Source of the DNA: Fimbriimonadia bacterium
GTDB lineage: Bacteria > Armatimonadota > Fimbriimonadia > Fimbriimonadales > JABRVX01
Direction: 5' to 3'
Length of the DNA: 64,000 nucleotides
Assembly (NCBI GenBank): GCA_041483895.1
Contig: JBGPGO010000004.1
Coordinates: 64,001-128,000 of the forward strand
Below are positions 46,346-64,000 of this stretch, piece by piece (positions within the stretch are counted from its first letter, which is position 1; each line of letters opens with the position of its first letter). A program made the position numbers and the translations under genes. The notes beneath the pieces are model-generated. The model searched no databases. It was not told where the DNA came from and was given only the letters and a program-made list of their open reading frames with translations.

Positions 46346-46562
46346 ATTGCGTCGGGAATGAGTCTCTGGCCCTGTGAACCGCGGCGAATCTTAGACCTGA
46401 TACCCCGAGGAACGGCCTGTGAATCGGGTAAAATTTGAGCCGCAGCGGGGGATAACGTCCGACGTAGATACCGGTCATCCAATAATTGACGTAGAACGGA
46501 GCGGAGCCGCCCGTCCGAATGCGGCACGCCGTCTGGGCGTCAACCAGCCAGGAAACGGAACC

Positions 46563-49352
46563 ATGAAACAGTCGAAGCAGTTGCCAAGCAGCGAGAGTCT
46601 CGGGTTCATCGAAGAGATTTACAGTCAATACGTCAAAGACCCCTCCTCGATCGGCAAGGATTGGCGGCAGTACTTTGAGGGACTGCTGAATGGGGACGTA
46701 TTGTCGCGTGGCTTCCGAACGGAACCTTCGTTCCTGCCCTCCAGCATTTTCCATACGAACGGCGGGGTAGCCGCGCCCAGCCCATCGGGCCAGACGTCGG
46801 AGGCCGAGCTTCAGCAGCGGGTCGGCATGCTGGTACGGAACTATCGCGTCCGGGGGCACAAAGTGTCGGATGTAAATCCGTTGCCTGTTCCGAAACCATC
46901 GCTGGTGGAGTTGGACCCTGGCTACTTTGGGATTACGGAAGCGGACATGGACCGCGTGGTGGCGGCGGATACATTGGTCGGTGTCGGCCCAATCAAGGTC
47001 CGAGAGGTTATCCAGCGGCTGCAAAACACGTATTGCCGGTTCATCGGCGTGCAGTTCATGCACATTGACGACCTAAATGTCCGAGAATGGCTGCAGCGAC
47101 GCATGGAGATGACGGAGAACCGGCTCGCCATGTCCCGCGAAGAGCAGCTTCGCATCCTGACTCGACTTACCGATGCCGCGATGTTCGAGGACTTCATACT
47201 CAAGAAGTTCATTGGCGCAAAGAGCTTTTCGCTGAAAGGGTCGGAGAGCCTGATCCCGCTGCTCGAATTGGCGATCGAGAAGGCCGGCAAGCAGGGAATT
47301 CTGGAGATTGAGCTGGCAATGGCTCATCGTGGGCGGCTCAACGTGTTGGTAAACATCCTCAACAAGAGCCCACAGGACATTTTTCGGCTATTCGAAGACG
47401 CGGACGCTGAATACTACAAGGGCAGGGGCGACGTCAAATATCACCTTGGCTTCAGCAGCACCTGGACGACGCAGGAAGGCAAGGAGATCCACCTTTCGCT
47501 GTGCTTCAACCCCAGCCACCTGCAATACGTGAATACCGTGGCGCTGGGCCGGATGCGGGCGAAGCAGGACCGTGCGGGCGACACAGGCCGCGAGAAAGGT
47601 ATGGCACTTCTGATCCACGGCGACGCCGCGTTCGCCGGCCAGGGAATCAACCAGGAAACGCTCAACTTGAGCGAGTTGAAGAACTATTCGACAGGCGGGA
47701 CGCTGCACGTCATCACGAACAACCAGCTCGGGTTCACGACCCCGCCGGAAGAGGGACGCTCGACTCAGTATGCGAGCGATATCGCGAAGATGCTCCAAAG
47801 CCCGATCTTCCACGTGAACGGCGAGGACCCGGAGGCGGTCGCACAGGTGGTTTCGATGGCGATGGACTTCCGCCACGAGTTCAAGCGAGACGTTGTGATC
47901 GACATGTACGGTTTTCGACGCTACGGGCACAACGAGACCGACGAGCCGTCCTTCACTCAACCCAAGATGTACGAAATGATCGCAAAACGCAGGTCGGTGT
48001 ATGAAGGTTATCTGGAGCACATGCTTGCGCTGGGTGGGATCTCGCGCGACGAGGCGGATTCGATCGCTTCACGGCAGCGCGAGTACTTCGAGCAGGAGCT
48101 TTCCAAGGCGAGGAGCCATGACTACGAAGTGCGTGGTGAAAAGCTGAAGGGCATTTGGGCGCCGTATATCGGCGGTTCCGCGGCGCATGCGGATTGGCCG
48201 GAGACGAAGCTGCCAAAGACGCGATTGACCGCCATTCTAGAGGCCCAAACCAAGCTTCCGGACGGGTTCCATCTCCATCCGAAGCTGGACCGGATGATGA
48301 CGCAGAAATTGGACATGGCGGCCGGGAAGAAGCCTCTCGACTGGGCCGGTGCGGAGTCCCTTGCGTTTGGCAGCCTGGCGATGGAAGGGTATCGGGTTCG
48401 GCTGTCCGGTCAAGATTCGGGACGAGGGACGTTCAGTCAACGGCATGCCATCTTGCACGACTATGAGACCGGCGATCGGTACGTGCCCTTGCAGCATTTG
48501 GCGCCCGACCAGGCGCCTTTGGAGATATTGAACAGCCCGCTGTCGGAGTTGGGTGTGCTTGGTTTTGAGTACGGATACAGTCTTGACTATCCCGACGCGC
48601 TGGTTCTCTGGGAAGCGCAGTTTGGTGACTTCGTCAATGCGGCGCAAGTTATCGTGGACCAGTTTGTCACGAGTTCCGAGATCAAGTGGAATCGCTTGAC
48701 TGGGTTGGTGATGCTTCTGCCGCACGGTTTGGAAGGACAGGGGGCCGAGCATTCCAGTTGCCGCATTGAGCGTTTCCTCGAGTTGGCCGAAGACGACAAC
48801 ATTCAGATCATGAACCTGACAACGCCTGCGCAGTACTTCCACGGATTGCGCCTGCAAGCGATTCGGAAATGGCGCAAGCCGCTGATCATTGCTACCCCCA
48901 AGAGCCTCCTTCGCCATCCGGAAGCGATTTCGAGCTTGGACGACCTTGCAAAGGGAGGCTTCCAAACGGTGATCGCCGATGAAGAGGTCAAGACCGCGAA
49001 GGCGGTTCTGCTCTGCACGGGCAAAGTCTATTACGATCTGTTGCATGCTCGAAAAGATCGTGGGCGGCGCGACGTTGCGATTGTTCGGTTGGAGCAGATC
49101 TATCCGTTCCCAGAGGAGGTCCTTTCCGGTGTGTTGGCACGGTACGGAAAGACGACACCTGTCGTCTGGGTGCAGGAGGAACCGGGCAACATGGCGGTTT
49201 ATCCCTGCCTCCGACAAAAGTATTGTGAAAATCTGCTTGGCCACCCGCTCTCGCTGGTCTCTCGCCCCAATTCGCCGAGCCCGGCGACGGGCCATGCAAG
49301 CAGCCACAAGTTGGAGCAGCAAATTCTGGTTGATGAAGCGCTGAGCATATAG
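46563..49352 (+). CDS. sucA: 2-oxoglutarate dehydrogenase E1
   Basis: MAHRGRLN, GDVKYHLG, HGDAAFAGQG, RLSGQDSGRGTFSQRH, WEAQFGDF, TPKSLLRH. Confidence 0.95.
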   Translation: MKQSKQLPSSESLGFIEEIYSQYVKDPSSIGKDWRQYFEGLLNGDVLSRGFRTEPSFLPSSIFHTNGGVAAPSPSGQTSEAELQQRVGMLVRNYRVRGHKVSDVNPLPVPKPSLVELDPGYFGITEADMDRVVAADTLVGVGPIKVREVIQRLQNTYCRFIGVQFMHIDDLNVREWLQRRMEMTENRLAMSREEQLRILTRLTDAAMFEDFILKKFIGAKSFSLKGSESLIPLLELAIEKAGKQGILEIELAMAHRGRLNVLVNILNKSPQDIFRLFEDADAEYYKGRGDVKYHLGFSSTWTTQEGKEIHLSLCFNPSHLQYVNTVALGRMRAKQDRAGDTGREKGMALLIHGDAAFAGQGINQETLNLSELKNYSTGGTLHVITNNQLGFTTPPEEGRSTQYASDIAKMLQSPIFHVNGEDPEAVAQVVSMAMDFRHEFKRDVVIDMYGFRRYGHNETDEPSFTQPKMYEMIAKRRSVYEGYLEHMLALGGISRDEADSIASRQREYFEQELSKARSHDYEVRGEKLKGIWAPYIGGSAAHADWPETKLPKTRLTAILEAQTKLPDGFHLHPKLDRMMTQKLDMAAGKKPLDWAGAESLAFGSLAMEGYRVRLSGQDSGRGTFSQRHAILHDYETGDRYVPLQHLAPDQAPLEILNSPLSELGVLGFEYGYSLDYPDALVLWEAQFGDFVNAAQVIVDQFVTSSEIKWNRLTGLVMLLPHGLEGQGAEHSSCRIERFLELAEDDNIQIMNLTTPAQYFHGLRLQAIRKWRKPLIIATPKSLLRHPEAISSLDDLAKGGFQTVIADEEVKTAKAVLLCTGKVYYDLLHARKDRGRRDVAIVRLEQIYPFPEEVLSGVLARYGKTTPVVWVQEEPGNMAVYPCLRQKYCENLLGHPLSLVSRPNSPSPATGHASSHKLEQQILVDEALSI

Positions 49353-49362
49353 GAGTCTTGAC

Positions 49363-50499
49363 ATGGCAGTCGAGTTGAAAGTCCCGTCGGTCGGTGAATC
49401 GATCACAGAGGTCCAGATCGCGCAATGGCTCAAAGGCGAAGGCGAGCAGGTGCAAAAGGACGAGAACATCGTGGAACTGGAGACGGATAAGGCCACGCTG
49501 GAGCTGCCCGCTCCCGTTTCCGGCATCCTAAAAGGCATCGTCAAGAAGGTCGGTGACATGGCCAATGTCGGTGACATCATCGGCTACATGGAAGAGGGCG
49601 CCGTGGCGACGGCTGGACCTCCGCCGCCAGCTCAGGCGAAGAAATCGGTTCCGGAAGCCCGCGTCATGCCCGCTGCCGCGCGAGCGTTGGCGGAAAAGGG
49701 ATTGAAGCCGGAGGATGTTGCGGCGACGGGTCCGGGGGGCCGGCTATTGAAAGAGGACGTTGTGCGACACGAGACCAAGGCGGTTCCAGCCGTCAACGGC
49801 CGCCACGAGGATGTAGTTCCGATGAGCCCGCTCCGAAAACGAGTGGCCGCGCGGTTAGTAGAGTCGCAGCAGACGACGGCCCACCTGACAACATTCAACG
49901 AGATCGACATGTCAAACGTGATGGCTTTGCGCAAGCAGTATCAGGAGGAGTTCCAAGCCAAGAACGGGATCAAGCTGGGAATCATGTCGTTTTTCGTCAA
50001 GGCGGCCATCGACGGACTGAAAATGATCCCGCAGCTCAATGCAGAGATCCGCGGTACGGACATCGTGTACAAGAACTACTACGATATCGGCGTAGCTGTC
50101 CAGAGCGCGAAGGGGCTGGTTGTTCCGGTGATTCGATCGGCGGAACAGATGAGCTTTGCCGAACTGGAAAAGGTGATTAGCGATTTCGCCGTGCGGGCCA
50201 GGGATAACAAGATCGCGATCGAGGAACTGGAAGGCGGAACGTTTACAATCAGCAACGGCGGCGTGTTCGGATCTCTGATGGCGACACCGATTATCAATCC
50301 TCCGCAGAGCGGCGTGCTGGGAATGCACGCGATTAAGGATCGGCCCGTCGTGGTGGATGGCGCGATTGTGATCCGGCCAATGATGTATGTGGCCCTCACG
50401 TACGATCATCGCATTGTGGACGGCCGCGAATCCGTCACCTTCCTAAAGCGCATCAAAGAGTGCGTTGAGAATCCGACAAGGATGTTGTTGGAAATCTAG
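49363..50499 (+). CDS. sucB: Dihydrolipoamide succinyltransferase E2
   Basis: Lipoyl motif ETDKA, LTTFNEIDM, GGTFTISNGG, TYDHRIVDG. Confidence 0.96.
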   Translation: MAVELKVPSVGESITEVQIAQWLKGEGEQVQKDENIVELETDKATLELPAPVSGILKGIVKKVGDMANVGDIIGYMEEGAVATAGPPPPAQAKKSVPEARVMPAAARALAEKGLKPEDVAATGPGGRLLKEDVVRHETKAVPAVNGRHEDVVPMSPLRKRVAARLVESQQTTAHLTTFNEIDMSNVMALRKQYQEEFQAKNGIKLGIMSFFVKAAIDGLKMIPQLNAEIRGTDIVYKNYYDIGVAVQSAKGLVVPVIRSAEQMSFAELEKVISDFAVRARDNKIAIEELEGGTFTISNGGVFGSLMATPIINPPQSGVLGMHAIKDRPVVVDGAIVIRPMMYVALTYDHRIVDGRESVTFLKRIKECVENPTRMLLEI

Positions 50500-51873
50500 G
50501 TGGCAATGCACGATCTGATTGTCATCGGGTCCGGTCCCGGTGGTTACGTTGCCGCGATTCGTGCCGCCCAGCTTGGCCTCAACGTCGCCTGCATTGAAAA
50601 AGAGCCCGCGCTCGGCGGGACCTGTCTTCGCATCGGCTGCATCCCATCCAAGGCGATCTTGGAATCCAGCGAGAAATTCTACGAATCACGAAGGGGTCTC
50701 GGCGCACATGGCGTCATCTTGGGAGACGTGAAGCTGGATCTGTGCGCCATGATGAAGCGCAAGACGGAGATCGTGGAATCTCTGACGAACGGCGTCGCGT
50801 TTTTGTTCAAGAAAAACAAGATCACGCGCTATGAGGGACATGGGCGAATCGAAGGGCCTGGACGCGTTTCTGTTGGCAGCGAGACGCTGGAAGCCAAGCA
50901 TATCGTCATCGCGACGGGCTCCAATGTCGCGCAGTTGAAAGGTGTGGAGTTTGACGGCGACCGAATCGGCGGAAGCACCGAGGCGCTGTCCTATCCCGCT
51001 GTTCCGGGAACGCTCGTCGTGATCGGGGCTGGGTATATCGGTCTGGAATTGGGATCCGTATGGAACCGGCTGGGATCGAAGGTGATAGTGCTCGAATTTC
51101 TTGATCGCATATTGCCGGGAATGGACGCGGAGATCGCGGCCGAGGCAAGAAAGCAGTTTGAAAAGCAGGGGATGGAGTTTCGTTTGGGCGCCAAGGTCAC
51201 GTCGGCGAAGGCGGGCAAAAAGGGCTGCGTGGTCGAGGTGGAGGGGTCGGATCCCATCTCTTGCGATCGGGTTCTTTGCTCCGTCGGTCGGGTGCCGAAT
51301 ACGGACGGGTTGAGGCTGGAAAATATCGGCTTGCAGCTTGACGAACGAGGCCGTGTGCCGATCAACGAGCGCTTCGAGACTACCGTTCCTGGGTTTTATG
51401 CCATCGGTGACGTGGTGCGCGGTCCGATGCTTGCTCACAAGGCGCAGGATGAGGGCATCGCCTGCGTGGAGGGCATCGCCACGGGGTACGGCCATGTCAA
51501 CACCAATGCCATCCCGGGCGTGGTATACACCGAGCCGGAGATCGCCTCGGTCGGCAAGACCGAGGAGGAGCTGAAGCAGGCCGGAATTGAATACCGGAAA
51601 GGCTCCTTTCCGTTCATGGCGAATGGGAGGGCCAAGGCGCTGGGGCACACCGCGGGGAAGGTCAAAGTGTTGGCAGATGCGGCGACCGATCGCGTGCTGG
51701 GGGTTCATATCATCGGTCCACGGGCCGGCGACCTGATCGCGGAAGCGGCGGTTGCCATCGAGTTCGGCGCGTCTTCGGAAGACATCGGACGCGCTTCCCA
51801 CGCCCATCCGACCCTTGCGGAAGCGGTGAAGGAAGCCGCCCTGGCCGTCGAAGGCCGGGCCATTCATGTTTAA
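50500..51873 (+). CDS. lpdA: Dihydrolipoamide dehydrogenase E3
   Basis: GSGPGGY, GGTCLRIGCIPSK, MLAHKA, HAHPTLAE. Confidence 0.97.
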   Translation: MAMHDLIVIGSGPGGYVAAIRAAQLGLNVACIEKEPALGGTCLRIGCIPSKAILESSEKFYESRRGLGAHGVILGDVKLDLCAMMKRKTEIVESLTNGVAFLFKKNKITRYEGHGRIEGPGRVSVGSETLEAKHIVIATGSNVAQLKGVEFDGDRIGGSTEALSYPAVPGTLVVIGAGYIGLELGSVWNRLGSKVIVLEFLDRILPGMDAEIAAEARKQFEKQGMEFRLGAKVTSAKAGKKGCVVEVEGSDPISCDRVLCSVGRVPNTDGLRLENIGLQLDERGRVPINERFETTVPGFYAIGDVVRGPMLAHKAQDEGIACVEGIATGYGHVNTNAIPGVVYTEPEIASVGKTEEELKQAGIEYRKGSFPFMANGRAKALGHTAGKVKVLADAATDRVLGVHIIGPRAGDLIAEAAVAIEFGASSEDIGRASHAHPTLAEAVKEAALAVEGRAIHV

Positions 51874-52416: not shown

Positions 52417-52451
52417 GCAATCGCCTTCCCTATTTTGGGGAAGGCGATTGC
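52417..52451. terminator. Hairpin between convergent genes, probable end of the paralog operon
   Basis: Perfect 14-bp stem GCAATCGCCTTCCC / GGGAAGGCGATTGC. Confidence 0.7.
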
Positions 52452-52458
52452 CAAACGT

Positions 52459-53808
52459 TTAGTCGCCCGGGCTGGAGTTGATGCCGAGCCGCGATCCAAT
52501 CGTAACGATGTCCGCTTCGTCCGGCTTCGCCGGATTGAGTCCCCCTTTGACACCCGCGCGGACGCTCGCATAGTATTCGTCGATGAGCTTAATGAGGTTC
52601 GCCGTTAGAGCGCCTTCGATGGCATCTTTGAATGCCTGGGGCGTCGCGGCGGTGAACGACGTGAAGTAGTCCACAAGCGCGAACGGTAGATATTTGGTTT
52701 GACCCGTCGCCGTGGCGGACAGGGTTTCGACCAAATTGGCCATCGGCAGCGTCGAGACGCGATAGTTGGTCAGGTTGGCGCCCGCCAACGCGCCCATCGT
52801 CGTTCGATATCCTACGCTCTTCGCATAGCAATGAAGGATCAGGGCGACAAGCAGCTCGTCATGCATCCGGAACTTTGCCGGCACGTCGAACAAGTGCCAA
52901 ACGCCGTACACATTGCCCGTTCCGACGTTCGTGTATGGTTGGACGCCTGCGGCGACGATGTCTTGATACAAGGTGCCGAACTGCGAGTTTTTCTCGACAC
53001 GAAGGTCGCCGTTGGTCATAAACCACTTGATGGTCTTCGACACGTCGAGAGCGCCGGCGTTCGATGCAAAGGTGGTGAAGCGAAACGCGGAAAAGTTTGC
53101 GATCCCTTCCAGATAGGCTGCCTGGTAGTTAGGAATGGCGACATGGAAGGAGTGGCCGCCCTGTGTACCGCCATAGATATTTTGGAGCCCCGGCATGTGA
53201 GTCCGCCAATCAGCCAGATCTTCCGTGTGGGTCAGCTCGTGGCAGAATGTCGCGCAAATCTCGTCGGCATTCGGATGGCCGTTGCGCAGAAACTGGCCGT
53301 TTTGAGTCAGATGCCAGTTGCCCATCGTGAACGAGCCGCCGAAGAACGAGGCCTCGCGCGTTCCGGTCGCATCAAAGGACTGAGCTCCAAACGACTTGCC
53401 CGCCGGCCACGTGTAGCCGCCGGAAAGATTGATCCCCCACCGATTTCTAGACGGCCCATCGGTAGGCTGCTGATTTCGATCGTTGACAAGATAGATCGCG
53501 ATCGGCTTGCCCGTAAGATGCAGAAGCTGATCCACGACCCCCTGCAGCGCCAATGCCTGCGAGCTGTTGGACGCGGGCCCGAACAGCCAATCGAGCAGCA
53601 TGCGAAACGGTTCGTTCTCGGCCAGGTTTTTCATATCCGCGTTAGCGGTCCCGGCAAGATATTCGACGGGTGTGATGACTACTTCCCCGGTGGCAACATT
53701 TGGATTGGGTACGTAGAACACACGGAGTTTGGTCCGAATGTACGCCTGGTCGGCTGACGCCGCAACCGCCAAGGCGAGGGCTAAGAGAATGGTAATTTGT
53801 CTTTTCAT
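52459..53808 (-). CDS. Secreted zinc metallopeptidase-like protein (gluzincin-type motif), last gene of the operon
   Basis: Signal peptide (AVAASA|DQ); HELTH followed by AYLEGIANF; AGGAGG RBS 12 bp after the upstream stop. Confidence 0.7.
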   Translation of the reverse strand: MKRQITILLALALAVAASADQAYIRTKLRVFYVPNPNVATGEVVITPVEYLAGTANADMKNLAENEPFRMLLDWLFGPASNSSQALALQGVVDQLLHLTGKPIAIYLVNDRNQQPTDGPSRNRWGINLSGGYTWPAGKSFGAQSFDATGTREASFFGGSFTMGNWHLTQNGQFLRNGHPNADEICATFCHELTHTEDLADWRTHMPGLQNIYGGTQGGHSFHVAIPNYQAAYLEGIANFSAFRFTTFASNAGALDVSKTIKWFMTNGDLRVEKNSQFGTLYQDIVAAGVQPYTNVGTGNVYGVWHLFDVPAKFRMHDELLVALILHCYAKSVGYRTTMGALAGANLTNYRVSTLPMANLVETLSATATGQTKYLPFALVDYFTSFTAATPQAFKDAIEGALTANLIKLIDEYYASVRAGVKGGLNPAKPDEADIVTIGSRLGINSSPGD

Positions 53809-53820
53809 ATCATTCCTCCT

Positions 53821-55785
53821 CTACTGCGGCAGCTCGTCTGCAAAGATGACGTCCTCACTGCCCTTCTTGGGGCCGGAGGTCTTGGTTGTGCCGTCCTTCA
53901 TGCGCCAGCTGATTTCATAGGTGTAGTCGTTGTCGCCCGGCGAGTGGATGTATTCGATCGCCGTGCTGGGGGGAGCATCCTGCGCCACGCGAATCGTCGC
54001 CTGCAGGTTCTGAACGGTATCGTTCAGCTTTGCCGTGAACTTGATGGTCGCAAGCCGCACGCCAAGCTCTGTCAACCGGCTCGGGTCGGCCTCGATCGAT
54101 ATCGATCGGCGGGAATAGGTCGGCGTGACGCTGAGAGCGACGTTTGTCGTCGGCTTCCAGCCCTCTTCCACAGTTTTGCCGCCGAAGAAACTCCAGACGG
54201 TGTTGTACTCATACTCCAGCCATTTGCTGCGGTCCGTATCGCCTTTCCAGCCATATGGGGTAAAGCGGAACAACCCGCCGCTGGTGCTGAAGTTTGTGCG
54301 GTCAATCCGGATCTCGTCCTGCGTCATGCTTCGATCGCCGTGCTTCTTTCGCATTTGGACCGTCACAAAATTGACGTACTTGGAGAAATCCGCCGAGTTC
54401 TGCCCGTCCAACATCACGACGACTTCCCTCTGCTTGTACAGGTCGTCATCGAGGTTGACGGATCGGAACACCATCGGATCTTTGACCCATTTCGTGAGAT
54501 TGCCGATGTTTTCCGAGAAGGTCGGATTCAGCTTATCCAATGTGGATCGGCTGAGTTGGATATTGATCGTGCCGCTGTTGTGCACCTTCTTCATCTCGTA
54601 GCTGGCGAGCAGAGAGAATGCGGGTGGCGACGAGTACGATGGCTTGGGCGGCGGCTGGCTTGCCGCGGCGGCCTGCTGCGGAGCGGGATCTTTCTTGGTT
54701 TCCACCGCGGCCTGCGCGCCAATCGTAGCATCGCCGGCCGGATGCGCTCCTGCCGCCGCCGGCGCGGGCGTAACAGCCGGCGTCGTTTCCGCTCGCCGCG
54801 CTGCCTCGCGCGCTTTTACCGCGTCGTATTGGCGGTCGATCTCTTGGTTTTCGGTACGGGTTTCCTGCTGCTGCGTCTGCATGTATTTAAGCGCCTTGTC
54901 CAACATGCCTCCGCTGGCATCGGGAGAGCCAAGCGCAAGTCCACCTCCGCCGGCGTCCTGCCGGTCGAACATGGCTTCCATGATCTTCGCTTCCGCAGAG
55001 TTCACGACGCCATCCAGCTTCTCATCCGTACCCTTGATGGTCACTTTGAGGGTGTCGGTGCGGACCATTTCGTCCAGCACATCCTTTATTTCCGCCCCGC
55101 CGAATTTTGTGGCGATGCCGGCGGCAAATGCGCGGTGCTTGTATACGCTGTCCCACTGACCTGTAACGGTCGCCTCATATCCATTGCGATAGCCCGCAAT
55201 CTCCATCTCAAACGTGAACGAGACATCGGGGGTCGAGGTCTGGAACGAATTCCAAAGCAGGGTCGCTCCCATCTTTGTGAGCTGCATAGAAACAGCTGCT
55301 TTGTCGCCTTCCAGAATCGGCGCGTTGCCAAGTCCCAATACGCGCGTGGTCAGCTCCCCATTCTCTTGCTTGAACGAAGAGACCAGGCCAAACTTACCGG
55401 AACGATAAATGATCGGGCCGGCAATGGTCGCACCGGGGACTATCTTGCTCAGCTCGCGCTTGGCCTCGTCCAGCATCTCCGGCGGAACGCTGAGGGCGAC
55501 GAGACAGTGAACGATGCCGCCGCCTTCCCCCTCTTTTGCCGCGTCCGTTCCCGCCGCCCCGGCGACGTTGCGAACATAGCGAAGGAAGCTGAATTTGGGC
55601 TTCCCGTCCGCGTCCACGGCGAGTCCGGCCTTGTTCGGCAGGTAGTAGTACACCTTCGGGTCCTTGAAGTCCTGGAACAGCTGCAACTGTCCAGCCCGGA
55701 CCGTTTTGTCCAGATTGATCTCTTGGGCGGTTGCGGCGACGATCGTCGCGATCACGGCCACAAACGCCAGTAAAAACCTTTTCAT
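53821..55785 (-). CDS. Secreted uncharacterised paralog-family protein, long form (654 aa)
   Basis: Signal peptide MKRFLLAF..ATA|QE; YYYLP, GKPKFSFLRY, GNAPILEG, FRSVNLDDD; GAAGGAGG RBS (an in-frame GTG at 55869 is an alternative start). Confidence 0.85.
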   Translation of the reverse strand: MKRFLLAFVAVIATIVAATAQEINLDKTVRAGQLQLFQDFKDPKVYYYLPNKAGLAVDADGKPKFSFLRYVRNVAGAAGTDAAKEGEGGGIVHCLVALSVPPEMLDEAKRELSKIVPGATIAGPIIYRSGKFGLVSSFKQENGELTTRVLGLGNAPILEGDKAAVSMQLTKMGATLLWNSFQTSTPDVSFTFEMEIAGYRNGYEATVTGQWDSVYKHRAFAAGIATKFGGAEIKDVLDEMVRTDTLKVTIKGTDEKLDGVVNSAEAKIMEAMFDRQDAGGGGLALGSPDASGGMLDKALKYMQTQQQETRTENQEIDRQYDAVKAREAARRAETTPAVTPAPAAAGAHPAGDATIGAQAAVETKKDPAPQQAAAASQPPPKPSYSSPPAFSLLASYEMKKVHNSGTINIQLSRSTLDKLNPTFSENIGNLTKWVKDPMVFRSVNLDDDLYKQREVVVMLDGQNSADFSKYVNFVTVQMRKKHGDRSMTQDEIRIDRTNFSTSGGLFRFTPYGWKGDTDRSKWLEYEYNTVWSFFGGKTVEEGWKPTTNVALSVTPTYSRRSISIEADPSRLTELGVRLATIKFTAKLNDTVQNLQATIRVAQDAPPSTAIEYIHSPGDNDYTYEISWRMKDGTTKTSGPKKGSEDVIFADELPQ

Positions 55786-55869
55786 TTTGTTTCCTCCTTC
55801 CGTACTCGGCGGGCATTGGCGTGTCGGTTCATACAACGATATCGGCATTCGAACCCGTGGCCACAGCAC

Positions 55870-57849
55870 TTAATTGCCTCCAAGCGCGCCTCCCAATTTG
55901 TCCAGGACCTTCTCCAACAGGCCGCTGGCGAGATTCGCGGCGCGATCTTTGAACGCTTGCTCCGTCAACAGGTTTTCCGGAATCGCCGCGAAGATATAGC
56001 CGTCCGACTGATCCTTCACCCATGGACCCACCAATTTCCCAGCGGTCTTGTGGTTGAAAACCAACCGATAGGCGTACTTCGGCATGTCTCGATCCGTAAA
56101 CATCTTCTTATTGATGAGCGCGACAGCGCCGCCAACCGGAAGCTGGATCAGCTCCGAATCTTCCTTCCCGAACTGCGAAATGTGGACCTCGGCGGTAACG
56201 CGCGTGATGTCCTTAGCCTTCAGCGCATCCAGATCGCCTTCCAACTCGACGATGAGTGGCCGGACCGGCGGAGCGAGCGTGACGCCTTCCCACGAGCCTG
56301 TATTCCAGGACGGACTTTCCGGAAACACGTTGCCGCCCTTGAGGCTCCACTGGACCTGGTACTGATAGACCTCCGGGTTCTTGTCTTCGCCGCGCGCGTA
56401 CGTGACCATCGCCGCAACACCCTTATCCTTCAGATACTTGGCGTCGATCGTGCGATGATCCTCAAAGGGCCGGCCGCTGCTGCGGTTCTTCTTTATGTTT
56501 ATCGTGACGTAGTTGATAGTGTCCTCGAAGATCTCTTTCGCGTCGAGGTCGAGGATGAAGTTGATGTCCCGATGCGTGAAGAACGGGTCGTTGAGGTTGA
56601 CCGATGCGACACACTTTGGGTTATCCCGGACTCCGTTGTACCAAGACATCAAGTTGCCGGTCATCGGATAGGGATATGTCATCGGGATGGAATAGTTGAA
56701 ATTCCAGGACTTGTTCTCCGTGAAGGTGCTGCTCTTGGCCCGGTAAATGTTGGACTTAAAATGGTTCCCTTGCTGCGCTGGGCCATCGTCCGGCTTGGGT
56801 TGCTCCTTGGAGCTCTCCATCATCTGTTCCGGCGAAGCTTTGTCTTCTTGGAAGAATGAGTTCATGAATAGTTGCAAGACGGCATCCCGGATCTTGTCGA
56901 CGCGGGCGTCCTGCTCCAATTCGATGAATTTGATGTCCACAACTTTGTACTTTTGTAGGATCTCCGTTAGCTCACGGCGCTCCTTGTACGTCATGGTGTC
57001 TTCGCCGGATGTTTCCCAGAGGAAGCCGAGGAATCGTCCCGTGGTTTCGTGGGTACTCTCCCACTCCTTCTTAATCTTCTCTTTGCTCTGCTGGAAAGTG
57101 GTCGAGCTATAGGTGGCGGTGCCCTTTATTGCAGGGCTGACAACCTGATAGGCCAAGTTGAACGTGATCGAGCAGTCGGCGATGCTGCTGGTCTTGTCCA
57201 GCGTCGCGGCCATAAGCTGAGCGCCGTTTGAAGTCAATCTCGCCGCGGCGGCAACCTTCTGACCGGGGAGCAACGGAGCTTTGCCCGATGTGACCAAGCT
57301 CTTGGTCATCGTTTCATCTTTCAATGTGGCAGATGTGATGAGAAACGTACCGCTGTCGCCATCCGGTTTCATCTGCATTGCGCCGAGAAGCGTGTCGCCC
57401 GTTGCCGCCAGCTTTTGCTTCAGTTCATTTTCCTGTTGCACCGTCAGGCCATACTCCATCAGAAAATGCATCAACGCGCCCTGCACGCCGCCTTCCGATT
57501 CCCTTTTCTCCGACGTGAACTTCAGAAATAGGAACTCCGGTACGCCGTCGGGCCGTTGGGAAAGCCGCAGGTTGGTCGGCAAATAGTAAAACTGGTGTCC
57601 GCCGCCTCGGCCCGCCAACGTCATCAAGTACCTGTGCGTAAGCTTAGACCCGATTGGCGCGCCACTGGCCTTCGATTCGCTGTCCATGATCAGGTTGACC
57701 ACGGTGCCGTCATTCAGGGTGATGGTCTTGCGGCCTTCCGAAACCGGGTAGGCGAAGACCGACGCGGCCAACGCGCCCGTCAATCCAAGAATGGCGAGCC
57801 GCCGGAACCAACCGCTGCGCCGACGCCCCCAATGCTGTTTCGTATTCAT
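55870..57849 (-). CDS. Secreted uncharacterised paralog-family protein, long form (659 aa)
   Basis: Arg-rich signal peptide; FYYLP, GVPEFLFLKF, GKAPLLPG, SVNLNDPFF. Confidence 0.85.
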   Translation of the reverse strand: MNTKQHWGRRRSGWFRRLAILGLTGALAASVFAYPVSEGRKTITLNDGTVVNLIMDSESKASGAPIGSKLTHRYLMTLAGRGGGHQFYYLPTNLRLSQRPDGVPEFLFLKFTSEKRESEGGVQGALMHFLMEYGLTVQQENELKQKLAATGDTLLGAMQMKPDGDSGTFLITSATLKDETMTKSLVTSGKAPLLPGQKVAAAARLTSNGAQLMAATLDKTSSIADCSITFNLAYQVVSPAIKGTATYSSTTFQQSKEKIKKEWESTHETTGRFLGFLWETSGEDTMTYKERRELTEILQKYKVVDIKFIELEQDARVDKIRDAVLQLFMNSFFQEDKASPEQMMESSKEQPKPDDGPAQQGNHFKSNIYRAKSSTFTENKSWNFNYSIPMTYPYPMTGNLMSWYNGVRDNPKCVASVNLNDPFFTHRDINFILDLDAKEIFEDTINYVTINIKKNRSSGRPFEDHRTIDAKYLKDKGVAAMVTYARGEDKNPEVYQYQVQWSLKGGNVFPESPSWNTGSWEGVTLAPPVRPLIVELEGDLDALKAKDITRVTAEVHISQFGKEDSELIQLPVGGAVALINKKMFTDRDMPKYAYRLVFNHKTAGKLVGPWVKDQSDGYIFAAIPENLLTEQAFKDRAANLASGLLEKVLDKLGGALGGN

Positions 57850-57851
57850 TA

Positions 57852-59645
57852 CTATCCTCCGTTTGGTTGGTTGGCTCCGGCGGGCACTTCGTCAAGAAGC
57901 ACGATGCCGGAGGAATCGTCTCGTGAAATCGTAATGTCTTTGCCGTCTTCGGTGTGCCAGGTGATATTGAGTCCGACCGTGAATTGGTTGATCGGCAGGG
58001 TGACATCGAGGGTTGTGTCGATCGGCTCGGTCCCGACTCGGCAGTTGACCTGCTTGGTTTTTGGGCTGCCAAAAAACGGATAGCTGACCCGGACGACCGC
58101 ATATACAATCTTCTTTTCCTTCAGTGCCTTTTGGTCGCCGAGAATTTGCACCGTTCGATGCTCGTAGGGCGGAAAAACGTTGATCATCGGCCCTTCCGTC
58201 GCGGTCCATGGCGTCTCGTAGGTTGCCCCGCCTTGAAAATTCCATCGGGTTCGGTATTCGTATTTCAGCCACAGGTCCCTGTCATCGTCACCGGAATACC
58301 CGTATTCGAATCCAAGATTTCCGGCAGCCGCATCTGTGACGGCCTCTGCGGCCCCGGCCTTGTCGATCACCTTTTCGCCCAGCGTCACGTTGCCGTCTTG
58401 ATGCGTCTTTCGCAAAGCGATCGTGACCGAGTTGACAAACTTGCCGAACTCCGGCAAAACCGTCCCATCAAGCGTCACATATACTTTTCGCTTCTGATAG
58501 ACCGGGTCGGCCATGATGTTGACGGCGCGAAAATACCGCGAGTCGTTGCCGTATTTGGAAAACAGCTCGCCGATGTTCGCCGTGAGGAGAGTATGCCGCT
58601 GAACCCCGGACTGATGGTTCAGCGAAATCGTGGTGTGGCCGCTGGTTTTAAGGTCCTTCATCTGATACGATCCGTACAAACTGAGGCCAAATCCTCCGCT
58701 GCCGCCGGACGCCCCGAGTCCGAGCGACGACATCAAGGTGTCAAGGAAATTTCCGCCCTCCGCCTTCGGCGCGGCCTGTTGAATGACGGGCTGAAAGAGC
58801 AGGTCGACGATCTTCGAGTAGGCGGTGTTCAGCATGCCGTCCATCGTGCCGTTTTCACCACGCGACGTCACTTTGATCGCCCCATTCTTCTTGAGATCTG
58901 CCACCGCGATGCCGACATCCGCGCCAAACCACAGCACCTTCGCGCCGGCGGAAAACTTCTCATCTTTTTGAACCTCGGACCAATTGACTTCGATCGTCGC
59001 ATCGTAGGGATCGGAGAGGCCGGAGAACTCCATGTCAAACGATATGGAGACGTCCGGCACGCGCATCTTAAAGGATTGCATAAGCAGCGACGCCTGGGTC
59101 TTGTCCAAATCGAACGAGAGCGCGACGCGGTCGCCCTCCAGAACCGGCGCGGCGCCGGTATCGAGTATATGCTTCACCACGGCGTCCGAATCCGGCTTGT
59201 CCGGGTTCTTGAGCAGCGAGGAAATGACCGCATATGTTCCGCGACTGAAGATGACCGGGCCGGTGAGCTTCAGGTCGTTGTCCTGCGTGATGTCTTGCAG
59301 CTCCGATTCGGCTTTCTTGACCGCCTTCGGATCGGTGTCGTAGAGAACCAGCATGTGGAGCACGCCGCCGCCATCGGCTTCCGTGATCGTGTTGGCGCTC
59401 GGGTCCGTCGCGGGCTTGTCCTTGCTGCCTTTTACATAGCGGATGAAGGAGAACTCCGGCTTGCCTTCCGCATCGGTTGCCAGGTGGGCTTTTTGCGGCA
59501 GATAGATCCATTCGTGCTGGCGATCGACGAGCGGGAAGCACCAGAGGCCGGCGGCCCGCTTGCCGCGATCCAGTTGGATGGACTGGCCGAACCCGATGCA
59601 CATCAGCCAGACGCAACATGCGAATGCAATCCAAAGGCGTTTCAC
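57852..59645 (-). CDS. Secreted uncharacterised paralog-family protein, long form (597 aa)
   Basis: Signal peptide; WIYLP, GKPEFSFIRY, GAAPVLEG, FRAVNIMADP. Confidence 0.85.
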   Translation of the reverse strand: MKRLWIAFACCVWLMCIGFGQSIQLDRGKRAAGLWCFPLVDRQHEWIYLPQKAHLATDAEGKPEFSFIRYVKGSKDKPATDPSANTITEADGGGVLHMLVLYDTDPKAVKKAESELQDITQDNDLKLTGPVIFSRGTYAVISSLLKNPDKPDSDAVVKHILDTGAAPVLEGDRVALSFDLDKTQASLLMQSFKMRVPDVSISFDMEFSGLSDPYDATIEVNWSEVQKDEKFSAGAKVLWFGADVGIAVADLKKNGAIKVTSRGENGTMDGMLNTAYSKIVDLLFQPVIQQAAPKAEGGNFLDTLMSSLGLGASGGSGGFGLSLYGSYQMKDLKTSGHTTISLNHQSGVQRHTLLTANIGELFSKYGNDSRYFRAVNIMADPVYQKRKVYVTLDGTVLPEFGKFVNSVTIALRKTHQDGNVTLGEKVIDKAGAAEAVTDAAAGNLGFEYGYSGDDDRDLWLKYEYRTRWNFQGGATYETPWTATEGPMINVFPPYEHRTVQILGDQKALKEKKIVYAVVRVSYPFFGSPKTKQVNCRVGTEPIDTTLDVTLPINQFTVGLNITWHTEDGKDITISRDDSSGIVLLDEVPAGANQPNGG

Positions 59646-61447
59646 CTAGTGGCCCCCTCCCGGCACGACGACGGGAGCGTCCGGCGGGACGAGATTGAAG
59701 TAGGTCTGATCCAGGTCTACCCAATCGCTCTTGACCGACAAGCCGCTCTTGTAGAACCAGGTCGTCCGGTACTGCGTCTTTGCCCCTGTCCGGTCGCGAT
59801 ACAAGGATGCCTTTGTCGTTGATTCCGTGTCGCCTGGCGAAGTGTGGCTCTGCGGGCAGTCTGCGACTTGCCCACCAACGGGTACTTGAATTCCACTACG
59901 CAGGTCTGCGCGCTCTTGTCCTTAAAATTCTGCCGATCCGCATCTATTTCTATCTGCACTTTTTCAAAAGGTGGAACCAGCGACACGGCCGGGTCCTGGG
60001 TTGAGGTCCAAGCCTCGCCGGCGGGCACTTTGATCGAGGGCCGATCATGAATGCTCCAGACGACCTGATACTCATAATCCATCATATCCTTCCCCGATTC
60101 GGCAAGGCGCGGATAGGTGATGCCCTGCACGGTCGTTCCCTTTTTCACCGTGTCCGGATCGAAACGAATGGCAGCCGTAACGTCTGACTGCCCCGACTTA
60201 TATTTCTTTCGCAAATTCACCGCGACGAAGTTGATCGTGTCCGCAAAAGAATCCACAAAGTCGCCGTCCACTTGAAAATGGATCGTCCTCGTTTGGAACG
60301 CCGGATCGTCCATATTCACGATGCGGAAATAGCGCGGGTCGTCCTTGAGCGCATCATACAGGCCATGGATATTTCCGGCGGTGCTGACCGGCACCTTCAC
60401 CGTCCCGTTCTTGCTCAGATTGATCGTAAACAGATTGTGCTTGATGTCCTTGCGATCTTTAATGACCCACTGGTCGTCGGTGTAGTACTTGGTGTCGTCG
60501 GTGCCGCCGAAAGTCCGCGAGAGCCAAGACCGCTCCTTCCTGCCTAAGAGCTGCCCCTGCTCGACTGCGGCTTCCCTTTCCGGATCGGCCGCGAAGCCGG
60601 TCTTGGTGTCGAACATCAGTTCCGTCAGCTTGGACGTGATCAAATCGAGCAGCTTGGCCATATCGTCGGTCTTAATTCCGAGGCCGGCGCCGCGATCCAG
60701 CGATTCAACTTTGAGGTCCCCCGTCCGTTGAAGATCGTCGGTAATCTGCCGAATCTGGCGCTTGGTGTAATCATGCTGGCTGTTGTAAATCGATGAGAAA
60801 TGCTTATAGACGGTGGAAACATCACAGGTCACACGCGCGTTGAAAGCTGTCACGACGGCCTCGTAGTACGCGTTGATCGAGATGGAAACGTCGGAGGTCG
60901 GACCGGAAAGCGAGTTCCACAGCAGCGTCGCGCCGTTCGGATTCAGGATGGCGGCGACGGCGGCCTTCGAACCCGGAGTGAGCGGGGCGGAGCCGGAAGT
61001 GATGACGGTCCGGGTCATCCCGCCCGGGGCCTTGTCGTTGAGCACCGCCGATACAACTTCAAACGATCCCGGCTGGTCTTCGGCCTCCTTCTTGGCCGGC
61101 AAAAGTGCCACGGGGCCGACGATACGGGCGCCCTGATGTTTCTTCTGCAGCTCTTTCTCCAGCAGTAGAACCGTTTCCGGCGGAAGAGTGAATTCGACGA
61201 GGCAATGGAACAGGCCCCCGGATGCCTGGCCCTTCGGATCGACATACTTGAGGCAGAGGAATTCCAATGTGCCGTCCTCATTTGTGGCCAGCCTCGGGTA
61301 TTTCGGCAGGTAGTAGAAGGCGCTGTCGTCCTGATAGTCCTGCAGCAGTTGCACACCCATGATCTCGTACCGGCCGCTGTCGAACTTCACCTGCCCAAAG
61401 GCGATGCTGCCAAAAATCAGGCCGGCGGCTATCAACATCCGTCGCAT
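59646..61447 (-). CDS. Secreted uncharacterised paralog-family protein, long form, with a 1-bp frameshift near 59836
   Basis: FYYLP, GSAPLTPG, FRIVNMDDP. The shifted frame continues PGDTEST...QYRTTWFYKSG...GGGH to a TAG abutting the next GTG start. Confidence 0.8.
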
Positions 61448-62599
61448 TTAGTCTCCTCCTCCTTCGTCGTCCGCGGGTTTCGGCTTGGCCGGCGGCGGGC
61501 TGGTAATATCCAGCAGCTTGGCCCAACCCGGTCCCTCTTTCCAATCGCCCACCTGGCGGTCCCCTTCGACTGTGACCGAAATGATTCGGTAAGAAAACGG
61601 CTTATCCATCCGCACGGCGAACGGGAACTTTAGGCTTGCCGAGGCGATATCCGGCGTGGCGGCTTTGAACGTCACGGTGCGGGTGACGGGCGTTCCCCCA
61701 ACCCCCATCGCTTTAATCTCCACAGTCTTGAGGGCCAGCGTCGGGGTCAGCGAATTGTTGAAATCGTAGCACCGGATATCGAGCGCCGGATATCCTGGCG
61801 GCACGGACTGATTGAGATCGATCCGCTTGAATCGGTCCGGCCACTTGTCGGCATCCGCCCGGACTGTGACGACGTTCGCCAGGATCGGCACAACCTTCTT
61901 CTCCCCTTCGGCCTTAAGCATCTCCTGAAGCTCTTTTGGAATCGCTTCCGGATTGCCCTTTGCAACCGAGTACCCCTCCGTATCGCCTTCCGCAAAGTAC
62001 ACGTACGAGACGGAGATCAGAACCTGCCCCTTATGAAACGCTTCCCATAACGCTTGGGACGAATAGGGGTCCGGATTGACGGTGTAGATGCGCTCGGACC
62101 AAAGGGCCGTGTCGTATGTCGGCGTCGCCGTCGCCGCATCCGACTCTTCCAGCCGTCCGTCCCTCACCTCTGTCGCCTTGTCCGCCACCGGAGCGTCGTC
62201 AACGATGGGCGTGTAAACGAGCCGCGTTTCCATGTGTTTGATGGGCAGGGGCAGCAGCCTCGCGCCAACGCCAAGAGCCGCCTTTGCGTTCTTGAGCGCA
62301 TCGCTGTTCACCTTGTCCATGACGATCTTAAACGAAAGCACCGAGCGGGCAACGAAATCTCCCGGATCGCCCGTGACTTCCGAACCGGTGTATATGATTT
62401 GCAGGAATCTGAGATCGGGCCCGCCGGACGGATCGGTCGCGATTTGAATCTCGCCCGGCGCGTAATAAAACAGCCGCGTATCCTTGGTGTCCAGGTACAC
62501 GGTCATGCCCGCGGCGACTCGCGTTTTGCCGAGCGCGGGCTCGCCATGCGCCGCCATCGTGACCAGACCGATTGTCATTGCGACGAAAATTGTCCTCAT
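61448..62599 (-). CDS. Secreted uncharacterised paralog-family protein, short form (~383 aa)
   Basis: Signal peptide MRTIFVAM..AHG|EP; LFYYAP, GGPDLRFL, ALWEAF, FKRIDLN, FSYRII. Confidence 0.75.
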   Translation of the reverse strand: MRTIFVAMTIGLVTMAAHGEPALGKTRVAAGMTVYLDTKDTRLFYYAPGEIQIATDPSGGPDLRFLQIIYTGSEVTGDPGDFVARSVLSFKIVMDKVNSDALKNAKAALGVGARLLPLPIKHMETRLVYTPIVDDAPVADKATEVRDGRLEESDAATATPTYDTALWSERIYTVNPDPYSSQALWEAFHKGQVLISVSYVYFAEGDTEGYSVAKGNPEAIPKELQEMLKAEGEKKVVPILANVVTVRADADKWPDRFKRIDLNQSVPPGYPALDIRCYDFNNSLTPTLALKTVEIKAMGVGGTPVTRTVTFKAATPDIASASLKFPFAVRMDKPFSYRIISVTVEGDRQVGDWKEGPGWAKLLDITSPPPAKPKPADDEGGGD

Positions 62600-62676
62600 T
62601 CTTCCCACATTCCTCTGGTCCCCTACCAACCATGCGAGGGTCGGCCGGGGGTCGCGTGCATCAAACCCCGTCAATG

Positions 62677-62699
62677 CGCAGGCTTAAGCCTGCGGCTAC
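62677..62699 (-). repeat. REP-like palindrome inside the operon
   Basis: GTAG-C-CGCAGGC-TTAA-GCCTGCG perfect hairpin. Confidence 0.65.
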
Positions 62700-62711
62700 C
62701 GTTTACCGGCG

Positions 62712-64000
62712 CTACCCACCCAGCAAGGACTTCAATTGCGCCTTTCCCAGGAACAGCTCCATCCGGTCTCCATCGGTCCATGGCGTCGGCCCAAGCGCCG
62801 TCCCATCGGCCTTGATAATGGTGTACCGATACGAGAACAGCGGGTCGCCGGGTTTCGCCACTTCGTCGGCACGGCGATCCACTAGGTAGACTGGTCCGAT
62901 CTCGATCGTCTGGTTGTCGGCGCTGATCGATCCGCTCTTGATTTGTTCAGCGCGATTCTTCGAATCGAAGTACTTGGATTTAACATCCACCATGATGCGC
63001 GCGATTCCGCCCGGATCGGTGAAGGGCGTCAGCGTGACGATCTGCACTTTCGCCGTCGTCATGTTCGCGACGCCGCCCGTCCATTGAGATTTCGCGGCAT
63101 CGACTCCTTCCGGATAGTTTTCGACAACGCCGTAATCCGCCCAGGACTTCAGCGACTTGCCATCCAACCAGCCCTGGATTGCCGCATCGGCGATGCGGGC
63201 CTTGGACTTCGGCGGCAGCTCCGTGTTCTTCAGATCGTACGAGTAGATCGTCGGCGTGCCGTCCGAGCCGATGGTCAAGAAGTGCAGATACTTCAGCTTG
63301 ATTGGGAACGGCGCTGTGTTCTGCATCAGGTCGGCGCGATGCCAATAGCGCGTTCCAAACGTGTGCGGATCGGTGATCTTGATCTGCACCGGAATCAGCA
63401 CGCTGAACCCATCGCCTTCGCCGGCAGAAGTATACGTGGCCGTACCCGTCAGGCCAAGCCCTTGAGTCAACGTCGCTTCGATATTTTCCTTCGTGACAAC
63501 ATCGGTCGTGAAGGAAAGGTCCACCTCCCCGGCAATATCGGAAATGGCCGAGACCGAGATTTTGTCCGCGGCGATGTTGAATCGCTTCAGATCGTCCTTC
63601 ATGGAGAATCCGGGGGAGCCGTTGAACGGGAAAGGCCGCAGCTCCTTGAACTTGCCGGCTGGCAGACCCTTTTGCAAAAGACCCCGCACGAAACTGATCT
63701 CCGCCGGATCGATCGCGGAAGTCAGCCGGGCGGTAATCGATACGTCGTTCGACCCGTCGGGCCGCGCCGCGCCGTAGATCATTCGCAGCGCGTAGCCATT
63801 GTCCACGTCCCAGAACAGCACGTAGCGAGCGGGCAGATAGTAGAAAATTCCCGAGGCCGGATTGGCATCCATATACACGTCCGCGTTGATTGTGGTGATC
63901 TTCTCGGCGGTCAGCCCGGTGCCAGGCGCGGCATTCAGAAGGTCGAACAGACGATACTTGGTGCTGGACGGCCCTTTGCCGCCCTTATCCGCCACATCCT
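62712..64000 (-). CDS. Uncharacterised paralog-family protein with N-terminal extension, 5'-truncated by the window
   Basis: Frame open to window end; VYMDANPASGIFYYLP, ELRPFP, C-terminal FSYRYTII...GPTPW. Confidence 0.75.
   Translation of the reverse strand, partial: DVADKGGKGPSSTKYRLFDLLNAAPGTGLTAEKITTINADVYMDANPASGIFYYLPARYVLFWDVDNGYALRMIYGAARPDGSNDVSITARLTSAIDPAEISFVRGLLQKGLPAGKFKELRPFPFNGSPGFSMKDDLKRFNIAADKISVSAISDIAGEVDLSFTTDVVTKENIEATLTQGLGLTGTATYTSAGEGDGFSVLIPVQIKITDPHTFGTRYWHRADLMQNTAPFPIKLKYLHFLTIGSDGTPTIYSYDLKNTELPPKSKARIADAAIQGWLDGKSLKSWADYGVVENYPEGVDAAKSQWTGGVANMTTAKVQIVTLTPFTDPGGIARIMVDVKSKYFDSKNRAEQIKSGSISADNQTIEIGPVYLVDRRADEVAKPGDPLFSYRYTIIKADGTALGPTPWTDGDRMELFLGKAQLKSLLGG

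Follow-up and report, generated by a model that had tools for sequence, protein, structure and literature searches.

The closest described counterparts of the operon reported here are multi-component pore formers. The CDCLs of Bacteroidota and the complement membrane attack complex (MAC), as portrayed in passages of PMC11169675, are encoded by adjacent paralogous genes whose products take different subunit roles, and both are linked to a protease; CDCLs are in addition put to antibacterial use. In anthrax protective antigen (PA) and related binary A-B toxins, a long polar stem with a short hydrophobic tip is mounted on an Ig-like core. The enzymes share a homologous N-terminal region that in PA systems binds the pore (parts of PMC3496994). 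Bacterial gasdermin modules place a pore former next to interchangeable proteases, including caspases, and are scattered over many phyla (10.1101/2021.06.07.447441, in part). All of these features have observed or proposed parallels in an operon at the end of a 64,000-nucleotide stretch of DNA (the window; positions 64,001 to 128,000 of contig JBGPGO010000004.1, assembly GCA_041483895.1) from a Fimbriimonadia bacterium, an uncultured sediment organism of the Armatimonadota. The operon encodes six secreted paralogs, some with helices that appear to refold into beta-hairpins, followed by an enzyme slot whose occupant differs from locus to locus. Our preferred, though tentative, reading is that the paralogs assemble into a hetero-oligomeric beta-pore of an undescribed family, which docks the slot enzymes and delivers them, probably against bacteria.

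The seven genes are co-oriented on the minus strand, to which all coordinates below refer, and are named g1 to g7 in reading order. The first begins at position 64829, 829 bp past the end of the window. As a sequence-only reading of the window had observed, purine-rich GGAGG-type sites lie 5′ of most starts and the genes are closely spaced, with gaps of 112, 0, 0, 2, 84 and 12 bp from g1 to g7. The signal peptides noted by that reading extend to all seven proteins, g7 and the completed g1 included, and signal-peptide-like N-termini are present in 298 of 367 orthologs. A rough lipobox pattern, sought as a sign of the SpII lipoprotein signal of CDCLs (PMC11169675, in part), is found in 0/7 window proteins and 18/367 orthologs.

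The relationship among the paralogs is genuine. The four genes g3 to g6 detect one another by BLAST at E values of 1e-13 to 1e-52 (21-34% identity), and in profile-profile comparisons of ortholog alignments they match among themselves at 100%. Such comparisons connect g2 to g3-g6 at 97-99% and g1 to g2 at 92.8% (E 4e-7); g1 compared directly with g3-g6 gives an insignificant score. Judged from the sequences, the paralogy of g1 to g6 is far beyond chance. The YYLP-type block and the motifs GGxxHxL, GxAPxxxGxK/R, D(V/C)S(I/F), VNxxDP and YxYxxxW are present as had been claimed, with the correction that the block of g1 is internal, at about residue 330, and not N-terminal.

The paralogs are of more than one architecture, an insert of 130-200 residues being confined to g3-g6. 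Protein g1 (62712-64829, of which 62712..64000 lie in the window; 705 residues) consists of an N-terminal extension of ~320 residues with a linker, a core lacking the insert, and C-terminal beta domains. Protein g2 (61448..62599; 383 residues) has a core with a short insert only and a single C-terminal beta-sandwich. These two form a structurally different class; g1 may be a cap or initiator subunit and g2 an adaptor or cap. The insert-bearing subunits fall into two kinds: the inserts of g4 (57852..59645; 597 residues) and g6 (53821..55785; 654 residues) are amphipathic, and those of g3 (59646..61447; about 600 residues) and g5 (55870..57849; 659 residues) are polar. As assembled, the g3 reading frame shifts near 59836. 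Because contigs from 4/4 other runs, which are sediment metagenomes drawn from four studies, have a one-base difference at this point, the frameshift is most likely an assembly error, in which case g3 directly abuts g4. The possibility that g3 is a pseudogene was rejected, as all four of the other runs lack the frameshift.

None of these proteins could be assigned to a named family, in agreement with the sequence-only reading. Pfam searches at E values up to 1 gave no match, Thiol_cytolysin and MACPF included, for g2-g7 and the in-window part of g1. NCBIfam scans of g1-g7 returned nothing above noise, and PADLOC models of anti-phage systems matched with 0 families at E up to 0.1. No PA14 or Binary_toxB match came out of the Pfam, NCBIfam or PDB sequence searches. 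The MACPF signature, (Y/W)G(T/S)H(F/Y)x6GG, is absent from the window proteins, and the YGR motif of CDCs and CDCLs, named in the parts of PMC11169675 consulted, is absent from g1-g7. A PHROGs scan of g7, PDB sequence searches with g4 and g7 profiles, and a single-protein genome scan were equally without result; the ESM Atlas offered unnamed clusters only, with no named match and no model, and no homolog was found in viral contigs. Every homolog encountered carries the source name "hypothetical" or "uncharacterized". A literature search, thin on subscription papers and without supplements, found no description of such a system, nor is it described in the checked passages of Kaur et al. 2020 (PMC7159879). 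The system matches no family searched; its mechanism is what we infer below.

Conservation of the set as a whole argues that its members are not interchangeable. The core profile matched 1130 clusters at 50% identity, and loci were taken from two sets of hits to the g3 and g4 profiles, the best 80 of 257 in genomes and the best 80 of 218 in metagenomes. Named loci span about ten phyla and include Bacteroidota, Acidobacteriota, Eisenbacteria, Armatimonadota, Gemmatimonadota, Myxococcota, Pseudomonadota, Verrucomicrobiota, Spirochaetales and Dormiibacterota. Homologs of g4 (the best 120 of 188) are 41-61% identical to it, closer than its own operon neighbors. The gene order is colinear in 155/160 loci, and all six paralogs occur together in 53 of the 63 loci long enough to test, or in 43/52 once near-duplicates are removed. 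Among the nine exceptions, five that lack g1-g2 upstream were searched genome-wide, and g2 lies elsewhere in 5/5 genomes; two others have g1-g2 placed divergently within the locus.

A quick tree of 52 core rows, with groups assigned by best hit and coinciding with operon position, places g3, g4, g5 and g6 each on one side of a branch (support 95-100) and splits (g4,g6) from (g3,g5) with support 99. Association of g3 with g4 is weakly predicted: their complex scored 0.49 against 0.00 for the best control, with contact agreement of at least 77% between runs and partner pLDDT of at least 68. The mark applied is reached by 116/157 solved and 2/215 mismatched pairs, but at values of 0.60 or below by only 18/157 solved pairs and by both mismatches; these counts are rough guides for alignments like those used here. 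A gene order that is constant from phylum to phylum, the single clade formed by each of g3-g6, and this weakly predicted contact uphold the proposal that the paralogs are non-redundant subunits of one hetero-oligomer. None of the three results named by the sequence-only reading as refuting it has appeared: no characterized family is matched, the homologs are not mostly singletons, and the paralogs align.

The system is rare and patchy. It occurs in 7/401 genomes of the host's phylum, the host included, and in 4/401 of a Bacteroidota sample, its centre included; it is absent from both other genomes of the host's family searched (0/2). Named cultured carriers include Flavivirga jejuensis KACC 14158, Muriicola sp. 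Z0-33 and Spongiimicrobium salis. Some lineages elaborate on the set. About 20 Bacteroidota loci carry an extra short core-only paralog, and at L011:11774-13149 and similar Bacteroidota loci this paralog is inserted between g4 and g5 together with a 235-residue protein. The latter, present in 24 Bacteroidota loci, has His and Cys motifs and is without a Pfam match; by motif it is presumably papain-like. In six Flavobacteriaceae loci (L053, L057, L064, L070, L083 and L088) the N-terminal extension of g1 is a separate 187-residue gene, with ECF-sigma-like and TPR-like genes nearby.

Clues to function come from the insert. The AlphaFold monomer of g4 (pLDDT 86, pTM 0.62) is modeled with an Ig-like core, whose last two strands are separated by an insert of ~130 residues, and with two beta-sandwiches at the C-terminus. 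The structural comparison that the sequence-only reading had recommended, made with g4 only (whole protein and core), gave middling matches to Ig-like folds and nothing closer. Against 48,161 chains, the best Z score was 7.8, for a generic Ig-like adhesin domain, and the top rows are generic Ig-like sandwiches and Kir cytoplasmic domains; the matches being only middling, no family is assigned. CDC domain 4 matches the last g4 beta-sandwich alone, at Z about 6, and anthrax PA residues 258-478 (6psn) appear at rank 49 (Z 5.1, rmsd 4.7, 116 aligned). No MACPF, CDC domain 1-3, gasdermin or aerolysin entry stands among the top 50, a result that does not exclude those folds. With TM about 0.1 and rmsd >20, the Foldseek rows for complement C3/C4/C5 and alpha-2-macroglobulin were dismissed. 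The sole viral match in the fold search with the g4 core is an uncharacterized protein of Medusavirus stheno (A0A7S7YF07; E 3.7e-7, 296 columns, TM 0.30), which may point to a relative in giant viruses or amoebae.

Segment A of g4 (residues 222-255; 58881..58982) is the candidate membrane-inserting hairpin. In the AlphaFold model residues 222-232 and 241-253 are helical, and coevolution tells a different story. A mean-field method, at a modest effective depth of 120-290 sequences, recovers the modeled strand pairs D204-H351 and I218-V259, and the register of the latter (i+j=477) runs on through the helical stretch. In a pooled alignment of g4 and g6 (499 sequences, about 290 effective), pairs in 222-233 have a mean Z of 1.72 and rank 16 of 1711 antidiagonals, the higher ranks all going to windows of this register that overlap it. 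The signal is also raised at registers 475 and 479 and flat at even ones (parity +1.14), the pattern of an antiparallel hairpin. Half-samples peak at 477 in 11/12 cases, neighbor-swap nulls fall at -0.3 to -0.7, and a helix-helix control reaches 0.77 with neither parity nor ladder. Taken separately, g4 gives 1.40 and g6 1.28; the signal is weak in g3.

A strand at residues 319-329 (58659..58691) covaries with segment A (E229-Y327, V237-G320, W239-F319). Hydrophobic alternation is conserved at g4 231-248, the hydrophobic face of segment A, and at 319-329, and also at g6 220-233, within its amphipathic hairpin A (residues 213-242; 55060-55149), and at g6 390-398. These observations suggest that the g4/g6 insert refolds from helices to a beta-structure of one hairpin plus one flanking strand; a second segment is partly variable. 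Since refolding of helices into a hairpin is a hallmark of MACPF, CDC and gasdermin pores, a beta-barrel is proposed for g1-g6. The loop that follows the hairpin in g6 (54622..54963), here a charged helix with a Pro/Ala linker, reaches about 500 residues in homologs and often contains TPRs, or other domains, and is for this reason not considered a membrane segment.

The same data could be accommodated by a non-lytic polymer such as a pilus, fiber, tube or lattice, in which the hairpins are inter-subunit strands, g1 and g2 form the tip or base, and the peptidase is a maturase, as in type V pili. Ig-like domains occur throughout, the variable g6 loop could serve for display, a weak Foldseek match exists to the putative Bacteroides adhesin 5cag (E 2e-4, TM 0.30, rmsd 8.6), and beta-complementation would also produce a beta ladder. 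Such a polymer seems very unlikely nonetheless: the lipobox is rare or absent, as noted above; each of four insert-bearing subunits of similar size is conserved in one copy, with no obvious major subunit; and the neighboring lysins and phospholipase D (PLD) would be left unexplained.

If the paralogs do form a pore, the following sequence of events can be envisaged. All seven proteins would cross the inner membrane by Sec. Subunits g3-g6 would then stand side by side, probably with g3/g5-type alternating with g4/g6-type, while the insert-less g1 and g2 would cap or nucleate the assembly. On the target membrane the helical inserts would convert to beta-hairpins of about 25 residues per strand, with hydrophobic tips contributed by g4 and g6 and polar strands by g3 and g5. 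The slot protein would dock through its conserved N-terminal part and be passed through the pore or held at it. The enzyme delivered would be a zinc peptidase here and an amidase, other proteases or helical proteins elsewhere. Bacteria would be the usual target, because peptidoglycan hydrolases recur. The whole would act in the manner of an A-B binary toxin put together, as in complement, from subunits of different kinds.

The contents of the slot bear directly on this scheme. Protein g7 (52459..53808; 449 residues), secreted and peptidase-like, has an HExxH motif (H190-E191-x-x-H194) and a glutamate 40 residues on (E234); H190, E191, H194 and E234 are invariant in 46 aligned HExxH-type sequences. 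A gluzincin-type zinc peptidase is the probable identity; the family and PDB sequence searches point to no clan. Anthrax lethal factor (LF) likewise is an HExxH..E zinc peptidase, with H686, H690 and E735 (PMC3496994, in part). The g7 family lies 3′ of g6 in 52 of the 71 loci with room for it, near-duplicates kept, and other proteases adjoin several of the rest. The slot is polymorphic. At loci without the g7 family, subtilase S8, astacin+C70, M43+C70 or C70 is encoded in the slot or by the gene after it, a 450-residue helical protein with no visible protease motif fills it in six Eisenbacteria loci, four loci show no candidate, and a few are unassigned.

Within the g7 family HExxH is kept in 52/75 members, followed in 49 by E(G/A) 37-46 residues later, and is missing in 23/75. 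Some members lacking the motif are full-length with the motif lost; others consist of the first 150-180 residues joined to foreign C-termini. One such C-terminus is Amidase_2, a peptidoglycan amidase (E 1e-14), and one member carries ricin-type lectins. Three further C-termini, which have no library match, are presumed from motifs to be lytic transglycosylase (SLT)-like, GH25-like and caspase-like. Genes of the g7 type occur up to three in tandem with differing C-termini. The shared part, residues 20-185 of g7 (53254..53751), is a putative docking module. It is restricted to the operon in 10/10 genomes and, among 401 Bacteroidota, appears only in the two genomes with a full operon; it may be the first half of a zincin fold reused for docking.

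A peptidase next to a predicted pore former also invites comparison with complement, CDCLs and gasdermins, as lytic pores in which the neighboring enzyme would cut an inhibitory loop, for example the variable loop of g6, without any translocation. Proteases are indeed the commonest neighbors and replace one another non-orthologously (HExxH g7, S8, astacin+C70, M43+C70, C70, C14 caspases, trypsin-like), the g6 loop is flexible and exposed, CDCLs require proteolytic activation (PMC11169675, in part), and 43/50 bacterial gasdermins adjoin proteases in the same manner (10.1101/2021.06.07.447441, in part). Simple lysis is nevertheless judged unlikely. The 23 g7-family proteins without HExxH include every copy in the six Flavobacteriaceae loci named above, the six Eisenbacteria loci have no visible protease motif to act as activator, and interchangeable cargo is a more economical assumption than a single cleavage site served by five protease clans unrelated to one another. 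Loss of HExxH and acquisition of foreign C-termini such as the amidase therefore fit cargo better than an activator. The protease-activated pore of the sequence-only reading is accordingly retained in its pore role, by virtue of the amphipathic hairpin and the helix-to-beta coevolution, and weakened in its activation step.

Distant homologs form a sister family in which operons of five to seven paralogs carry a signal peptide in 1/91 proteins. Its sources include Deinococcus, Kribbella, Cellulomonas, Synechococcus, Bryobacterales and Paracoccus sp. SMMA_5, and its consensus has the hydrophobic hairpin pattern of g4/g6. In locus L089 and on the Paracoccus plasmid the order is four long paralogs, a phospholipase D, a short core-only gene, a long paralog, a g1-like gene and a terpene-cyclase-like gene; the last, with a long C-terminal extension, ends both operons (L089:3-1370, L174:27707-29803). 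Another sister operon, L195, ends in two C14 caspases, and in L194 two long paralogs precede two C70 peptidases, a GH25-like lysin (E 2e-6) and a GH19 endolysin (E 6e-55). Of the genes downstream in L194, three (L194:2036-6851), encoding a C70 peptidase, the GH25-like lysin and an unknown protein, share an N-terminal leader and, after it, a Ser/Asp/Asn-rich tract; this leader looks like a second kind of loading signal. The Paracoccus operon is directly preceded by trypsin-like, EAD1 and ATPase genes (L174:6414-11301) and directly followed by tyrosinase and trypsin-like genes, and a link to intracellular conflict systems is possible.

The signal-less forms also bear on whether the barrel might belong to the producer itself, as a secretion channel or envelope machine that, from the periplasm, enters the outer membrane of the producing cell to export or display the slot enzymes, the N-terminal part of g7 being the export signal. 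Sec-type signals in all seven proteins with no lipobox, and the lack of a T9SS sorting-domain match in NCBIfam, agree with such a channel, which would explain both how cargo leaves the cell and why no immunity gene is evident. We regard it as distinctly unlikely. The sister family has the same architecture without signal peptides and extends to Actinomycetota, Kribbella and Cellulomonas among them, in which an outer membrane is lacking, and the neighborhood clusters conserve no lipoprotein anchor, inner-membrane part or ATPase. A beta-barrel is common to this channel, the lytic pore and the delivery pore that we prefer; explanations of some other, unspecified kind carry a slight probability.

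Taken with the sister family, enzyme delivery can be put more broadly, and a shade more doubtfully: the operons may represent a phylum-spanning delivery class, in secreted and signal-less forms, in which a six-paralog pore of fixed stoichiometry arises by beta-barrel refolding and accepts interchangeable enzymes (peptidases, peptidoglycan hydrolases, phospholipase D) through a shared docking module, the pore being unrelated in sequence to MACPF, CDC, gasdermin, aerolysin and binary toxins.

Several observations weigh against enzyme delivery through a pore. Neither an obvious immunity gene nor a dedicated route of export was noticed, and an amidase exported by Sec would meet the producer's own wall. 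What the beta ladder demonstrates is an extended hairpin; it does not show a pore in a membrane, and a similar signal would come from a soluble polymer held together by beta-complementation. The hydrophobic strands are only 7-9 residues long, the inserts of g3 and g5 are polar at the hairpin tip and flanking strand, and g5 has no clear ladder at the modest depth available. Most slot occupants are proteases, which is also consistent with activation; the signal-bearing family has a single library-confirmed amidase, its SLT-like, GH25-like and caspase-like C-termini being assigned from motifs that no library matched; and the endolysins of the sister family lie next to one divergent locus, L194. 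The N-terminal part of g7 may simply be the first half of a zincin fold. Loci chosen as the best hits to g3 and g4 profiles are biased toward intact operons. Incomplete sets do exist: a partial cluster (L090:3653-11660) comprises g1, g1, g2 and g5, with g3, g4 and g6 absent from the stretch covered, and host contig C12, on which no further paralog was found, bears an orphan g2-like gene (L008:9226-10236; 336 residues, signal peptide, 26% identity to g2) surrounded by glycosidase-like genes.

The hairpin noted by the sequence-only reading at the end of the operon is present 3′ of g7 (52417..52451; 14 bp, z -3.4, with 0/200 shuffles as stable), but it lacks a U-tract on this strand and lies between convergent genes. 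The convergent neighbor (46419-51873) is, by sequence reading, an ordinary 2-oxoglutarate dehydrogenase operon (E1, E2, E3). Upstream, a 334-residue gene 368 bp away and behind a terminator-like hairpin was excluded from the operon. Farther along the host contig, at ~134000-138300, come ParB-like/DNA-methyltransferase genes, then a kdp operon and further on an integrase-like gene; read from the sequence, they hint at a mobile island that would lie 5-25 kb upstream of g1. Three secretin genes elsewhere in the host genome are unlinked to the operon.

Type V pili of Bacteroidia (Fim/Mfa) likewise have an operon that encodes several paralogous beta-proteins, all secreted and in a fixed order, and a protease is involved. 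The present system differs in having no lipoprotein signal, no family match, an amphipathic insert, and a distribution far beyond Bacteroidota. The insert of PA presumably sits elsewhere in its domain than that of g4. PA is moreover a homo-oligomer aimed at animal cells (PMC3496994, in part). Polymorphic toxin systems, as outlined in parts of PMC3482391, resemble the slot in that a conserved N-terminal module is joined, in tandem cassettes, to C-terminal enzyme domains that can be exchanged, whereas here no known trafficking domain was matched and no immunity gene is evident. Bacterial gasdermins are single, cytoplasmic and lipid-modified (10.1101/2021.06.07.447441, in part), in contrast to the six paralogs here, which are secreted and match nothing in PADLOC or Pfam. 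From CDCLs and complement, as described in passages of PMC11169675, the operon departs in its six paralogs rather than two or three, in having, as coevolution suggests, one hairpin with a flanking strand rather than two hairpins, and in the polymorphic enzyme slot that it co-encodes.

Even without a pore, there seems to be no description of so widespread an assembly of six paralogs that combines a predicted conformational switch with a polymorphic slot for a partner. Animal complement is known to assemble in an ordered way from many different paralogs, and the bacterial beta-pore formers known to us are built from one to three kinds of subunit. A set of six in bacteria, ordered across about ten phyla, would, if the pore is real, constitute a new pore-forming family and probably a new route of enzyme delivery between cells.

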